Positions 10,212 to 50,633 of a DNA stretch of 52,691 bases are shown one piece after another. The position numbers and the translations under genes are program-made. This stretch comes from a virus (lineage: Duplodnaviria > Heunggongvirae > Uroviricota > Caudoviricetes): positions 1 to 52,691 of IMG/VR virus record IMGVR_UViG_2872174743_000006; one strand, 5' to 3'. Each line of letters opens with the position of its first letter. Positions within the stretch are counted from its first letter, which is position 1. Under the pieces are notes generated by a model that saw only the letters and a list, made by a program, of their open reading frames with translations, was not told where the DNA came from and ran no database searches.

Positions 10212-13200
10212 TCAGCTAATCGTGATGCCTGCAGTGGCTTTCTTCATCACCACAACCAGCAAATCGCTGATACTTGCTGTGGGATACCAGTTATTTACCA
10301 GCCATGCTGACACCGAAAACTCCAGTGTCATGTGACCGTGACCGGCAGGCATATCAATAACACCACTGTAAATCAGCGTATTATCCAGCGCGGTACGGTT
10401 ATAAATTTCAGCACCGTTTTTCCGCACTATCAGACGGCATGAGGAGTAAATATCAGTATGCTCTTTCTCATGTTTAGCGCCGCTGAATGCCACCGCCGGA
10501 ATAACAATCTGCCGGTCAAACGGCTGATCGTCATAAACCCTGACGGTAATGGTTCCTGATGGCCACCGCTCCGGTGCACGGGAGTCCCGGGGGAAAGCTT
10601 TGCCCACTGTTTTAACGAGATCGCCTTCAATCTGGTTCGCGGACAATTTTCCCAGAACCCGACAGTTCTCGTTAATCGTGACGTTGTTGAGCGTCCCGGA
10701 GTTCGCATTCACGTTACCGCTGATATCGGCATTTTTCGCCGTCAGCCGCCCGTCCGGTGTCAGGGAAAATGCCGGAGGATTACCGCCGCTGGTAATGGTG
10801 GGAGCCGTCAGATATTTCAGGAACACTTCATTCATAAATATCTGATCGCCCTGACCAACAAACATCGGCTTTGTGTTGCCATTCGCAGGATTAATCATCG
10901 CAATCCTGTCTGCCGCCAGCAGCACCTGACTCTGCATTCCTGCTGGCGTATTCTCAATACCGGCATCGATACCCGCAATATAAAGGCGTCCGTCCTGCAT
11001 CTGCTGCAGTTTCACGGCCCACATGCTGTTCAGGTTATTATTTGTATCAACCTGAACTTTCTGTATCTGCTGGATTGCCGCACTCTGATTTTCCAGTTTT
11101 TTATTGACGGTCTGCGTGATTTCATTGCTGACATTCGTAATGGACGTCCTGATTTCAGCCAGGTCCGGCGCAAGCTGACCGTTATCAATCTGCGTCCACA
11201 GCTCCTGGGCCAGATGTGTTTTCCCGATTTCTCCTTTGAAGAAATCCAGGTAACCTTCCGCATCATCGCTCGCCCGACCGACAGCCTCCACGAATGCCGA
11301 TTTGCCAACAGTATTCACACTGCGGATATAAAAATAATAATCATGGCCCGGTTTGATATTGATACTGGCAGCTATCCAGTACAGCGCCGAGCCAAGATAG
11401 CGGGCTGCGGTTTCAACCTGCCTGATATCCGCAATCCGCTTTTCCGAGAACCAGAACTCAAACTGTACCGTCGGGTAATAAACGGCAAGATGCGGCGTGG
11501 CGGTTATCTGAAAATAGCCCGGCGTCAGTTCAATGGTGGCGGGTTTTGCTGGCGCGTTAATCCGGAAGGTGGTGGTGGCCGGTTCGCCCTGCTGGCCATA
11601 ACTGTTAATTGCCCTGACTGTCAGGGTGTATTCCCCGAGCGGCAGACCACTGAAACGATGCTCTGTATCCGCAGTGATAGCGGTGGTCACCAGACGGCTG
11701 TCTTCTCCGCTTCCGCTGGTCAGTCGCAGACTGAAGCGCCCCCCCTTCACCACCCGCGGCGTGTCCCATTTCGCCTGTGCCAGATACTGGCCGTCAGCTG
11801 CGCTCACCTCCACCGTCAGGTGCTGCACTGCCGGTGGGATGACGCTGTTCAGGGAGCCTGACTGCGGCTCAAAGCGGGCACCGTTATCCACGATGGCTTC
11901 TTTTTCCGGTACGTGCTGCACCGCCGTGATGGCAAAGGTGCCGTCCGTGTTTTCCCGGACGGAGACACAGCGGAACAGGCGACGGCGCAGTGACGGCAGG
12001 GAGAGTCCCCACACCCCGTATGTCTCCACACCATCAGGCAGGGTACTGACCTGTATCCGGTCCGGCGCGGGGTGTGCGGTGATGTCCACACTCACCGGCT
12101 TACCGCTGCCGTTAATCAGGTTCACCGCCGATGTACCTGTCTCCGGCAGGGTAACCTCACGGTCCAGCGTCAGGGTGCGGGTGGCAGCATCAATGGACAG
12201 GACACGTCCGCCGGTCATAGTCCCGGCATAGTCGTTATCACAGATTTCAATAATGTCACCCGGTGTGTGACGCAGCCCCTGTGACCCGAGCGTGAAGTCC
12301 ACCGTCTGCGTTTCCAGCAGTCCGGTCTTTATCACCCACAGACCTGCACGGTGAGCCTGACCGCGGCAGGTACAGCCAAACGCATCCATCTTCAGCAGGT
12401 TGCGTCCGTAGCGCAGTATGGCTTCCGGGTCTTCCACCAGTTCCGTGGAGGTCTGCCAGCCGTTCTGCGGGTCGGTGTAATTCACCTCCACCGCCGTGTG
12501 CCGGTCCTTCAGGGCACTGAAGCTGTAGCGGAATCCCACGCCGTTATCATCCACCACCACATCGCTGTTGGTGTACGGCCACACCACATCCGACGGGCGG
12601 TCCTGAACGAACGTCAGCGTCTGACCGTTCCATACCGGCATACAGCGCATCGCAGAGCAGAAATCACTGAGAACGTCCCACGCCTTACGCTGTTGTGCCA
12701 GGTACGCATTAAAGGTCATCCGCGGCTCGGTCCCCCCGAAACCATCCGGGACCGTCTGGTCGCAGTACTGCCCGATGGCATACAGCGCCCACTTGTCCAC
12801 ATCCGCCGCCCCCAGACGTTTTCCCATGCCGTAGCGCGGGTGAGTCAGCATGTCCCACAGGCACCAGGCCGGGTTGTTGCTGTATGCCGGTTTCAGACTG
12901 CCGTCCCAGATACCACTGTACGTGCGTTTTTCCGGGTCATAGTTTGACGGCACCTGGATGATGCGACCGCGGATATGGTAGTTCACCGTCATCTGCTGGC
13001 CGCCGAACTGCTCCGCATCCACCTGCAGCCCCACAATGGCCGTGTTCGGGTAGCACTGTTTCACATCGATGATTTCGGTGTATGACGACCACAGCGTCTT
13101 ATTCTGCAGCTGGTCCGTGGTGCTGTCCGCCGTCTCCCTGACCATCCGGATGTTAAAGGGCCGGGGAGGCAGATTATCCAGAATCACCGAGGCCAGGAAC

Positions 13201-13685
13201 TGTGAGGTGGTCTTGCCGTTAATGGTGACGTCCTTTTCCGTCACCCAGCGGCCATTACGCTGTAACTGAATCAGAATCCGGACAGAGGAAGGATTACGGT
13301 CGCCCTTTGACGTGGTCTGCACCAGTGACTGCACCCCGAAGGTAACCCGCAGGCGGTCAATGTTCGCGGACGTAATGGTGCGCGTCACCGGTTTTGCCTT
13401 CGTCACTTCCACGCCCAGTCCGGTTTCAGAGCCGGAGGACTCAAAGCCTTCCGGTGGTGTCTGCTCCTGCTCCCCGGCGCGCCAGACCGCCGTCACACCG
13501 TGTATCACGGGATTGCCGTCCGTGTCCGTCAGTGGGGTTTTGTTCACCAGAATACTCTGCAGTCCCTTCACCGGACCTTCTATCGGTCCCTCACCAATCG
13601 CATCAATCACACTCATCATCTGCGTGGATTTGAGATTATCCTTCGCCTCACGAGGAGTGTGTGCCTTACCGCCACCTTTTCCCAT
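10212..13685 (-). CDS. J: host specificity / central tail fibre protein J
   Basis: 1157-aa ORF collinear with lambda J; follows I. Confidence 0.9.
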
Positions 13686-13890
13686 ACAGCCTTCCCCTGA
13701 ATAAATTAACCGCCACTTGCCATTCCGTACAGAAGTCGGATATCCTTCGCCCGAAAAGCATGAAACACATTTCTGCCATGCTAAAGAGAAACCCCGGTAT
13801 CAGCAGATACCGGGGTTTTCTTTCATGCCCACCGATAATCCTGTTGGTTAAAACCGGTAATGGCATAAAAATTCTGAATATCTTCACATT

Positions 13891-13918
13891 TTCACACACT
13901 GACTGTGGCGCTTATAAT
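13891..13918 (+). promoter_or_regulatory. sigma70-like promoter (TTCACA, 16 nt, TATAAT)
   Basis: -35 TTCACA at 13891-13896, 16-nt spacer, perfect -10 TATAAT at 13913-13918, in the I-J intergenic region on the strand opposite the late genes. Confidence 0.35.
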
Positions 13919-13924
13919 TTCGCT

Positions 13925-14023
13925 GCGTTAGTGTTTTTTTGCCCGAGTAACAAAAACAACTCCTTAACATTGATCTTCATTTGTCTGTCCCCGCAGCTCC
14001 GCGATCACTGCGGGATTTTTTTA
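13925..14023 (+). ncRNA. candidate small RNA, about 100 nt, antisense to the I-J intergenic region
   Basis: Promoter-like element upstream, no ATG in the interval, ends at a GC-rich hairpin plus T-run. Confidence 0.3.
13989..14023 (+). terminator. rho-independent terminator
   Basis: Stem CCCCGCAG / CTGCGGG with 11-nt loop followed by ATTTTTTTA. Confidence 0.5.
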
Positions 14024-14027
14024 TGTT

Positions 14028-14708
14028 TTATCCCTGTCGCCCGATAACCACGACCTTTCCGCCCCCGCCTTCATCACGGGTGCTGATGTCCTGGGATATA
14101 CGGCGGGAGCCAACCAGCATTTCCCCGTAAGGCACCGGCATCGGGTTCCCCTGGGCAATCATGTTATCCAGCGAGGAAAAGTACGTGTTCTGTCTGCCGT
14201 TATCCGTTGCGCGGTAATCCGGTGTTTTTGCCTTCGGGGCCAGCATCTGGGCCACACCGCCCAGAATCATGCTGGCTCCAAGTGAAAACAGCATCGTGGT
14301 GGCAGAAAAACCACCGGCTGCCAGGGCTGAACCCCATAACGCCATTGATGCCCCGGCAGTGAAGAAAGAGCCCACGATGGCTGCCGCCCCCAACACAATC
14401 TGCAGTCCACCCTTTCCGGCCCCGGCCAGTCGCGGCACAATATGGATGACCGTTCCCTCACCCAGCTGTTCGTGAAGACGGGCGTACACCGCCTCCGGTG
14501 CCGTGTCATAACCGGCAATACGTATCTGGTACCAGCCTTCGTTCATCTGACGGCGAAAGCCCGGCACCTGTAACGACAGCGCCCGGATGGCTTCCGCTGC
14601 CGTGTTCACATACAGGCTGAGGCGGCGGCCAAATCGTTGTAAATCCCCGTGAAGGCAGATGCGTGCCAGTGGCGGTGACGCCAGACAGAATGCGTTCGTC
14701 GTTGCCAT
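14028..14708 (-). CDS. I: tail assembly protein I
   Basis: 226-aa ORF; LQRFGRR, Gly/Ala-rich membrane segment and ...YGEMLVGSR match lambda I; overlaps K. Confidence 0.85.
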   Translation of the reverse strand: MATTNAFCLASPPLARICLHGDLQRFGRRLSLYVNTAAEAIRALSLQVPGFRRQMNEGWYQIRIAGYDTAPEAVYARLHEQLGEGTVIHIVPRLAGAGKGGLQIVLGAAAIVGSFFTAGASMALWGSALAAGGFSATTMLFSLGASMILGGVAQMLAPKAKTPDYRATDNGRQNTYFSSLDNMIAQGNPMPVPYGEMLVGSRRISQDISTRDEGGGGKVVVIGRQG

Positions 14709-15359: not shown

Positions 15360-16058
15360 TTACTGCGAAAGTTTATTAATGGAAAGGAAACCGCCAAAAT
15401 TGCCGACATTCCTGCGCAGTTCACACCCGCGCATGCACTTGCTGCATCTGTCCTTACGGATATCCGTGGTGGGGTTGTCGAACTCATCCGCCACCGCAGG
15501 ACCGTTATACCCGCATTCATCTCCCCGGTAATCCCACATACAGGTGTTCGCCAGCATGATGCGACCGGGAAACAGCGCCCCATCCGTCTCGGTCGGTGTA
15601 GCCAGCACAAACGAGGCCGTCATGGCTGTCAGCTGCGACATCTGCTCCACCACCCAGCGGTCACTCAGCTCCTGCTCCGGGTCCGCCTCCGGATTGCCCG
15701 CAACGAAATTCACCGCATCCAGAAAACGGGCATACACCCGGCGGCGGACCACCGTGGCCCCCACCAGACTCTGCAGGTCTTCCGCCATCCCGGTGACCAG
15801 ACCGAACAGATTGGACACCGTCAGCGACGGTCTGGCACTGCTGCCCCGACCGTTCATCTCAAAGCCGCTGCCGTCAATCGGGTATGCCTCATACTTACGC
15901 CCCTGCCAGGTGACCGGCTCCCCTTTTTCATTCAGCTCATTACAGAAAAAATACCGCTCACCGCCCTGTACCGTCAGGTCGATTTCCCAGAGTACCACCC
16001 GCGGTGACTGCTCTGATTTAACCGACTCGCTCAGACTTTCTTCGTGAATATCCTGCAT
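15360..16058 (-). CDS. L: minor tail protein L
   Basis: 232-aa ORF collinear with lambda L. Confidence 0.85.
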   Translation of the reverse strand: MQDIHEESLSESVKSEQSPRVVLWEIDLTVQGGERYFFCNELNEKGEPVTWQGRKYEAYPIDGSGFEMNGRGSSARPSLTVSNLFGLVTGMAEDLQSLVGATVVRRRVYARFLDAVNFVAGNPEADPEQELSDRWVVEQMSQLTAMTASFVLATPTETDGALFPGRIMLANTCMWDYRGDECGYNGPAVADEFDNPTTDIRKDRCSKCMRGCELRRNVGNFGGFLSINKLSQ

Positions 16059-35388: not shown

Positions 35389-35850
35389 AAATCCTCCCGG
35401 CCTGGATAATATTGTGAGTAAAATGAGGAGCGGGCTGAAGTCCGGAAGTTACAGGACAATGGCAGAAGATAGACAACAGCCCGCAATATGAAAAAGGCCG
35501 CGCTATTGCGCAGAGTGATTACTGTCGGATATTATTCACCAGCTGAAATATTACTTCACGTTTTGTTGTTTATTCCTTGCCGCCCGCGTCTCCCAGCGCG
35601 GGCTTTTTTTGTCCATAAGAAAGCCCCTCCGGAGAGGGGCTGGAGAGTGGCGCTATGTGCCATTGCATGGTGCCGGGTGCCTCCCGGTGAGTTCAGTATC
35701 AGCACCTGAACCCGCACAGAAAGGATAAGGGTCGGTGACAAAACACCAGTTGCTGATTGCCCCTCCGCACAGGGGGATTCACCATGCCAGTTTCTTTTAA
35801 CAAACTCCCCGCAAACCAGACAACAGTCAACCGCCTGAATTGTGAGACAT

Positions 35851-35889: not shown

Positions 35890-35966
35890 TGTGGCGCGTT
35901 CTACTGTATTCGAACCAGTGACCGATTGCTTAGAAGGCAATTGCTCTGTCCGGCTGAGCTAACAAC
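35890..35966 (-). tRNA. tRNA-Arg (anticodon UCU), argU-like
   Basis: Cloverleaf readable by hand: TAGCTCAG...GAGC D-arm, anticodon loop CTTCTAA, TTCGAAT T-loop, encoded CCA; one acceptor and one T-stem mismatch. Confidence 0.55.
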
Positions 35967-35979
35967 GCAGGATACAGAT

Positions 35980-36056
35980 AATGAACCGCCTTCGGGGACC
36001 CGAACTCCGCGCAACCAGCTTCGAAGGCTGGCGCTCTTTCCTGATGAGCTAATGGC
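35980..36056 (-). tRNA. tRNA-Arg-like (anticodon UCG), possibly degenerate
   Basis: D-arm and anticodon arm (loop CTTCGAA) canonical, but T-loop reads TTCGGGT, stems have mismatches and the 3' end reads TCA not CCA. Confidence 0.4.
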
Positions 36057-36063
36057 GGTATGT

Positions 36064-36139
36064 GATGGTGGCCCTTGCTGGATTTGAACCAGCGACCTGG
36101 CGATTATGAGTCGCTCGCTCTCACCACTGAGCTAAAGGG
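36064..36139 (-). tRNA. tRNA-Ile2 (anticodon CAU), ileX/ileZ-like
   Basis: GGCCCTTTAGCTCAGTGGTGAGAGCGAGCGACTCATAATCGCCAGGTCGCTGGTTCAAATCCAGCAAGGGCCACCA; closely resembles E. coli tRNA-Ile(CAU) as recalled. Confidence 0.7.
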
Positions 36140-36190
36140 CCGGGAGCAAAATAATAATGGTGCGTAATTAATTCTGCAATCTCATCCGTT

Positions 36191-44986: not shown

Positions 44987-45370
44987 GATGGCAGCCTCCG
45001 TTGACTGTGGAAAACTTCCACCACCGGAGCTGCGAAACTCACTGGTGGCAGACTGAACAGGGTTCGCAGTACCGGCGTCAACGGAGACCGGCGAGCCTTT
45101 CGGCTCCCCTGCCCAGCCCACCATAATTCTGGCGTGCGTGAGCGCGGACGATAAAAAAGACGCTGGCGCGTCATATATCGCCGTTGACAATTCCGGGCTG
45201 CGACCCCCGGCACCCACTTTATAAGGTGCAGAGACAGTGTAACGTCCCGAAATTGCAGAATCAATATTTGGTCTTGAAATGATCATATAGCTGCTGATAT
45301 CTTTAGAACTGTTCTTGGATGTTTCGGAGCCGTTTTATGCGAAACAGCTCCCCGTTATTGATGTTGAGTG

Positions 45371-49846: not shown

Positions 49847-50110
49847 ATGGCCACTTTAACAAAAAAAGAACGGGCATGGTTGAATGAATTACAGGACGTT
49901 CTTGATCGCTGTCCATTACCAAAAAAAATTGGTTTTTACACCATTGGCGATAAAACCATTTACCTGTATGACCTACGCCGCATGGATGAAATCATGGAGG
50001 CTCTTGATAATCGTTCGTCGATGGATTGGTGTGTTGCTGTCCATGATATGAATGCAGGGTTTGATGAAAAGATTTTGTTCCCCTCATCAGTTGAAAGCAC
50101 TGCGGGTTAA
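49847..50110 (+). CDS. hypothetical protein
   Basis: 87-aa ORF, tightly packed in the early-left operon. Confidence 0.4.
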   Translation: MATLTKKERAWLNELQDVLDRCPLPKKIGFYTIGDKTIYLYDLRRMDEIMEALDNRSSMDWCVAVHDMNAGFDEKILFPSSVESTAG

Positions 50111-50120
50111 GGAGTAACAC

Positions 50121-50633
50121 ATGACCACTATAACCAAAGAGCGACTGCTGACAATCAAGCAGTGGCGCGAAACATACGGACCGGGTAGCAACGTTGTGCT
50201 TCCAGCAGAAGAAGCGGAAGAGCTGGCACGGATTGCGCTGGCATCACTGGCAGCAGAGCCGGTGGCAAAGATTATAGCTCATTACCCATTAGGAGTTGAC
50301 GTAGGCAAACAAAAATTCGTACAGGCCATTAGAGAGCTTCCTGACTTTGGCGGATATCTATTTGCCGCCCCTCCAGCGCCGATAGTGCCGGAAGAAATGT
50401 ATAGGCAGGATGCGCCAGTTGAAGGCAGCAGCAAAGCGGCTGCATACGCTACAGGCTGGAACGATTGCCGCGAAGCCATGCTTCAGTCCGGAAACTTTCG
50501 GGAAAATAAAGATTCGTCAACCAATAATTTTCGGAAAATCCCGGAAGCGTCAACCAGCTCTCCGGTAACTCCGGATGGTTGGATAAGCTGTAGTGAGCGA
50601 ATGCCGGACGACAGGCAGGAGGTGAATCAATGA
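50121..50633 (+). CDS. hypothetical protein
   Basis: 170-aa ORF with RBS GGAG upstream. Confidence 0.45.
   Translation: MTTITKERLLTIKQWRETYGPGSNVVLPAEEAEELARIALASLAAEPVAKIIAHYPLGVDVGKQKFVQAIRELPDFGGYLFAAPPAPIVPEEMYRQDAPVEGSSKAAAYATGWNDCREAMLQSGNFRENKDSSTNNFRKIPEASTSSPVTPDGWISCSERMPDDRQEVNQ

Follow-up and report, generated by a model that had tools for sequence, protein, structure and literature searches.

A copy of the Hfq-dependent small RNA PasB lies in the I-J tail gene gap of a lambdoid prophage

We analyzed a 52,691-nt stretch of viral DNA (hereafter the window), which is a lambdoid prophage with its morphogenesis genes on the - strand. Tail genes J and I are separated by a gap of 342 bp (13686-14027) with a GC content of 43.6%, compared to 52.1% for the window. 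The genes and the features between them are as follows.

10212-13685, - strand: J, tail tip / host specificity gene
13686-13864, unstranded: variable left module ("long" form) from the J start to the PasB promoter, holding the hairpin at 13789-13818; not common to E2348/69
13865-13924, + strand: conserved PasB promoter block, with an A/T-rich stretch, tandem TTCACA..TTCACA, the -35 at 13891-13896 and the -10 TATAAT at 13913-13918
13925-13939, + strand: extra 5' segment GCGUUAGUGUUUUUU, predicted from promoter geometry; absent from the published 83-nt PasB
13940-14022, + strand: PasB small RNA in its published boundaries, 83 nt, A27 allele (Table S6 of PMC8550237, mapped by alignment and direct reading)
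13961-13983, + strand: putative target-pairing stretch UCCUUAACAUUGAUCUUCAUUUG, with seed 1 at 13961-13973 (SNP at 13966) and seed 2 at 13973-13983
13990-14022, + strand: intrinsic terminator and likely Hfq-binding module, with stem CCCGCAG/CUGCGGG, 11-nt loop and U7
14028-14708, - strand: I, tail assembly gene

The + strand promoter found by scanning (TTCACA at 13891-13896, a 16-nt spacer and TATAAT at 13913-13918) matches the consensus at 11 of 12 positions. No other site on either strand of the 52.7-kb window reaches 11/12; the mean in 30 mononucleotide shuffles was 0.5. The following 98 nt (13925-14022) contain no ATG. They end in a GC-rich 7-bp terminator stem (13990-13996 with 14008-14014) and a T7 run at 14016-14022, with a fold of -12.6 kcal/mol (z = -2.3). 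The resulting U7 falls within the length of at least six expected for the U-tract at the intrinsic terminator of an Hfq-dependent small RNA. An initial annotation of this DNA had placed a promoter, about 100 nt free of ATG and a terminator hairpin with a T-run here, and scanning and folding recovered each of them where it had put them. The gene I stop codon lies 5 nt past the U-tract, and the two genes are convergent. The 5' end of the RNA lies downstream of the J start, about 250 nt away. A CRP-like sequence, TCTGA-ATATCT-TCACA (13873-13888, + strand), shares bases with the tandem TTCACA repeats of the promoter; its centre, near -44.5, is outside the usual activating positions.

PasB is listed in the paper that discovered it as an 83-nt RNA at NC_011601 (-) 1466343-1466261, in prophage PP6 (Table S6, PMC8550237). 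These E2348/69 coordinates fall between the tail assembly gene I and gpJ. Alignment and direct reading of the sequences revealed that the window from 13873 to 14050 is identical to the E2348/69 locus except at 13966, so that the published PasB maps to 13940-14022. The two RNAs share 82 of 83 nucleotides, the sole difference being A for C at 13966, RNA position 27. The E2348/69 promoter block is likewise identical save one base, at 13872. The published Northern probe, AATCCCGCAGTGATCGCGGAGCT (Table S6, PMC8550237), matches the window exactly at 13995-14017 on the - strand, with no match in 100 shuffles. Because it matches the - strand, this probe detects RNA made from the + strand. The identity of the RNA, the match and orientation of the probe, and the location between I and J opposite the tail genes all agree. 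On this sequence evidence, the unit is a copy of PasB, the Hfq-dependent small RNA of enteropathogenic E. coli found in 2021. It is already known, and our extensions to it are minor and incremental. The prophage small RNA gene of a kind described in pathogenic E. coli, which the initial annotation had proposed, is PasB by the probe match, the 82/83 identity and the shared I-J position.

A variant named PasB-2 differs from PasB at position 27, and PasB is described as embedded in the phage structural-gene operon and common beyond enteric pathotypes (preprint, doi 10.64898/2026.05.13.724894). From its sequence, the A27 allele of the window fits PasB-2. No Rfam 15 family (including Esr41, AgvB and AsxR) was detected in 13600-14100 at the gathering or a relaxed threshold; the best score, for an unrelated Streptococcus family, was 27 bits (threshold, 48). 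Esr41 was also rejected as an identity because it is located in SpLE1. RefSeq annotates nothing in the gap in any listed genome carrying the 342 bp, and a literature search by sequence strings gave no match.

In E2348/69, PasB gives a Northern band of about 80 nt, the size predicted from read coverage, and its stability depends on Hfq (Pearl Mizrahi et al. 2021, PMC8550237). On deletion of hfq, the log2 fold change of pasB was -6.8 in one growth condition and -2.4 in the other, and the RNA was higher in the "non-activating" condition (static overnight LB, 37 C) (PMC8550237). The same study recorded 37 RIL-seq interactions and reported no common target motif for PasB; expression from an uninduced prophage is shown for E2348/69 only (PMC8550237). 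In the PasB block of the RIL-seq table, PasB is the 3' partner in all of its chimeras.

The start predicted from the promoter, at about 13925, would yield a 98-nt RNA. The published 5' end, which was set from read coverage, maps 15 nt further downstream, to 13940. The 5' end near 13925 proposed initially therefore matches the promoter prediction but not the published boundary. We saw no promoter in the sequence that could serve a start at 13940. The initial GCGUUA and the U-run are retained in most of the 32 variant bodies described below, GCGUUA with single-base changes in a few. A longer primary transcript that is then processed may be one explanation of the disagreement. The preprint makes no mention of a PasB promoter or start site (doi 10.64898/2026.05.13.724894). 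The promoter was previously unannotated, and its explicit assignment is new here.

We also compared the RNA structure across variants. RNAalifold on 26 aligned variants returned the terminator as the sole structure. Its stem is near-invariant, with the innermost pair alone broken in two variants, and because it hardly varies, covariation lends the structure no support. A hairpin between the 5' U-run and an A-run formed in PasB-type variants but not in those of v01 type (the sister allele treated below), so it is not claimed.

To profile target pairing, we took 12 RIL-seq partner windows of PasB from E2348/69. Nine to ten of them bracket a translation start. Two partners are listed under the upstream gene and lie at the start of the next one, namely fabR (for yijD) and E2348C_2648 (for the following gene). 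With the E2348/69 version of the stretch and PasB nucleotides numbered from the predicted start at 13925, five of the 12 partners contain perfect matches of 9-11 nt, all within PasB nt 37-59, which 0-7% of dinucleotide shuffles equalled.

napF: 11 nt, PasB nt 39-49, CUUCACAUUGA, across the GUG start; as good in 0.7% of 300 shuffles
yijD: 11 nt, PasB nt 37-47, UCCUUCACAUU, Shine-Dalgarno region; as good in 0.7% of 300 shuffles
caiF: 9 nt, PasB nt 37-45, UCCUUCACA, just past the start codon; as good in 7% of 300 shuffles
rpoS: 10 nt, PasB nt 49-58, AUCUUCAUUU, early coding region; as good in 0.7% of 300 shuffles
tolC: 10 nt, PasB nt 50-59, UCUUCAUUUG, across the AUG; as good in 0% of 300 shuffles

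The remaining seven partners had no PasB match exceeding chance in the shuffle comparison. The stretch that carries the matches, 13961-13983, is predicted to be unpaired. From these sequences we infer two adjacent seeds, each with CUUCA, that would act by occluding translation starts. The preprint, working from conservation alone, proposed a seed immediately upstream of the terminator (doi 10.64898/2026.05.13.724894); that location overlaps our seed 2 only partly.

The base that distinguishes the window falls inside seed 1. With A at 13966, the matches to napF, yijD and caiF shrink to 6-7 nt and pairing is weaker by 5-6 kcal/mol; seed 2 is unaffected. Because of this position, targets of the napF/yijD/caiF type should be lost or altered in the window allele, and those of the tolC/rpoS type retained. 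The seed assignment, which would put the common position-27 polymorphism within the pairing region, is a new extension. Separately, GTTAAGGAGT (50106-50115, + strand), in the ribosome-binding site of the ORF at 50121-50633, is a perfect complement of the window-allele seed 1, ACUCCUUAAC; about two such 10-mers are expected by chance in the window. Targets inside the prophage itself were rejected: the candidates were this 10-mer, which does not exceed that estimate, and one 12-mer antisense to the integrase gene, which is not part of any gene.

The segment between the J start and the promoter occurs in two forms. It is 186 nt in the window versus 83-84 nt in the short form (84 nt in E2348/69), which has an unrelated hairpin. 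Folding confirmed the second plus-strand hairpin noted initially at 13789-13818 as a very stable structure: whichever strand is folded, it reaches -27 to -28 kcal/mol (z about -6), and none of 200 shuffles was as stable. This hairpin probably lies outside the RNA gene. It fails the terminator rule of the scan on both strands. The hairpin of the short form (E2348/69; L002, 4431-4454) scores as a terminator on the late strand. The initial annotation had held that lambda has no intergenic space between I and J. This was incorrect, as lambda has a 60-bp gap there (15445-15504; L128, 746-805) with a hairpin inside it, and on the late strand a T-rich run comes after this hairpin. A strong hairpin stands directly upstream of J in all I-J junctions examined, and the hairpin sequences are unrelated to each other. 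One contig (L066) has the long left module minus its 47-nt hairpin segment, a clean deletion that leaves a 139-nt form. The left module is probably part of the late operon and not of PasB, and the second hairpin of the window probably corresponds to the one in the lambda gap. On the simplest reading, the late operon had its hairpin upstream of J before the PasB unit was inserted between that hairpin and the I stop codon.

The 342 bp of the window were found in 1,612 of 5,426 complete E. coli genomes. In IMG/VR, a 25-mer of the promoter occurs in at least 120 contigs, with 32 distinct RNA bodies behind it. The commonest body in this sample, v01, follows a promoter with a few base changes and is only about 60-70% identical to PasB; it retains the 3' half of the terminator and the UCCUUA and AAUCUUC motifs. 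In E. coli VR50 (L141, 295-650), the left module is identical to that of the window, the promoter differs at three bases and the body is v01. This combination of a window-identical left module with a v01 body indicates that the locus is mosaic. Among the 5,426 complete genomes, 962 have a PasB-type and 800 a v01-type body. Rarer, more diverged RNA forms are also present (L143, L186). For all 12 PasB partners, the predicted duplex is stronger with PasB than with v01.

For its survey of Escherichia, the preprint used a word size of 28 nt and a minimum coverage of 75%, and it describes PasB variants that differ by a few bases only (doi 10.64898/2026.05.13.724894). Given these settings and these variants, its counts very probably do not include v01. 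This sister allele, about as common as PasB, seems to be undescribed.

Outside E. coli, a 21-mer of the promoter matched only E. albertii and two tiny contigs. These are a 546-bp contig of Asaia platycodi and a 3.4-kb contig of Streptomyces flavalbus, where the PasB promoter sits on E. coli prophage sequence; both are probably contamination. All 57 parsable I-J junctions beside this I allele carry the PasB module, although the survey, made by I protein, recovered no I allele below 97% identity and is thus uninformative on how frequent RNA-less junctions are. In one IMG/VR contig (2534681940_000025, L035), an insertion that begins TGAACCGCCCCGGGAATCC separates the -35 and -10 of a PasB-type promoter. 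The insert may be IS629.

The PasB unit has its own promoter and terminator, a base composition that deviates from that of the window, and a position between two genes that are nearly adjacent in lambda, where comparison of the I-J gap revealed no such unit. We interpret pasB as a self-contained moron between I and J that is read against the late operon, and we hold this explanation, with the mechanism proposed for it, to be the best one and very probable. In the lysogen, the near-consensus sigma-70 promoter would drive a short non-coding RNA ending at the intrinsic terminator with its U7 tail. The central unpaired stretch (13961-13983) would then pair with the ribosome-binding sites or start codons of the napF, yijD, caiF, tolC and rpoS mRNAs. 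Such pairing would most likely block translation initiation.

A broader reading makes the I-J junction a polymorphic small RNA locus, in which a promoter and a terminator/Hfq module stay fixed and the pairing region varies by allele (PasB, PasB-2, v01 and rarer forms). Near-identical prophages could then impose different host regulons, the SNP of the window would retarget seed 1, and v01 would be a sister RNA with its own targets. We put this forward tentatively, at somewhat less than even confidence.

PasB could instead act mainly in cis. After induction, the late transcript across the I-J gap would be fully complementary to it, and pairing or head-on transcription could tune J or mop up PasB. 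The convergence of PasB with the late operon and its placement entirely inside the gap would suit such a role, as would the stable position seen in the 57 junctions. However, PasB overlaps no coding sequence or ribosome-binding site, the J start is some 250 nt off, and the published evidence all concerns partners encoded elsewhere, in uninduced cells. Moreover, the RNA body is highly variable between alleles with identical flanks, a pattern more in keeping with changing trans targets than with a fixed role in cis. We therefore regard a mainly cis-acting PasB as improbable. The same evidence bears on the term "antisense", which was initially applied to this RNA. It is apt in that PasB lies on the strand opposite the late genes, but no coding or regulatory region of an opposite-strand gene is overlapped in the I-J gap of the window, and the published evidence is of an Hfq-bound RNA pairing with mRNAs encoded elsewhere.

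Two other readings fare worse than the moron interpretation. That the unit is silent or a decaying remnant in the strain of the window, without regulatory effect, is brought to mind by the promoter split by an insertion sequence in contig 2534681940_000025; it is very unlikely, as many unrelated strains carry the same intact promoter, body and terminator at 100% identity, and the copy in E2348/69, which differs at one base, is abundant and Hfq-bound (PMC8550237). That the gap encodes a small protein, either from a 66-aa ORF (13666-13866, - strand), annotated as a hypothetical protein in one phage record (ASU11), or from a 49-aa ORF (13981-14130, + strand), we consider negligibly probable, since RefSeq has no annotation there in every listed genome, the first ORF overlaps the J start and crosses the strong hairpin, the second starts with TTG within PasB and crosses the terminator, and the left module is swapped wholesale in other phages.

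The window contains matches to further RNAs. A STnc100 match (143 bits, 35611-35816, - strand) adjoins three tRNA genes (35895-35968, 35985-36058 and 36069-36141, - strand); STnc100 has been tied to PasD by structure (preprint, doi 10.64898/2026.05.13.724894). A C4 antisense RNA match (79 bits, 45041-45128, - strand) lies beside an IsrK match (56 bits, 45153-45229, - strand), and this pair may be part of an RNA-based control module.

An experimentally validated small RNA could thus be recovered from sequence alone, though it is missing from genome annotation and from Rfam. The extensions we propose are the promoter and 5' end, the seed assignment with position 27, the widespread sister allele and the origin of the second hairpin. 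For work on PasB, they offer as leads an explicit promoter with a 15-nt disagreement at the 5' end, a polymorphism at position 27 within the inferred pairing region, and a sister allele, v01, that is about as common and that a BLAST search with 28-nt words would miss.

Compared to PasB of E2348/69, the window has the same terminator, the same I-J position and the same promoter but for one upstream base; it differs at RNA position 27 (A for C) and in the module between promoter and J (186 versus 84 nt). The v01 form (e.g., in E. coli VR50 and Stx2c phages) shares the position, the left module and the 3' half of the terminator, whereas its promoter differs at three bases and its body of about 70 nt is roughly 60-70% identical, with both inferred seeds changed. 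Esr41 (EcOnc14) of enterohaemorrhagic E. coli is likewise short and Hfq-dependent, and its gene sits on a horizontally acquired element. Its targets are core-genome mRNAs, which it represses at ribosome-binding sites; in this it would resemble PasB as proposed here. Unlike PasB, it maps to the SpLE1 / O-island 43/48 element rather than between tail genes, and the sequences are unrelated. PasA/PasC, PasD/STnc100, AgvB and AsxR are, like PasB, prophage-borne, Hfq-associated small RNAs of pathogenic E. coli; their sequences are unrelated to it, and their loci are close to the lysis, Q or stx regions, whereas PasB sits in the tail operon.
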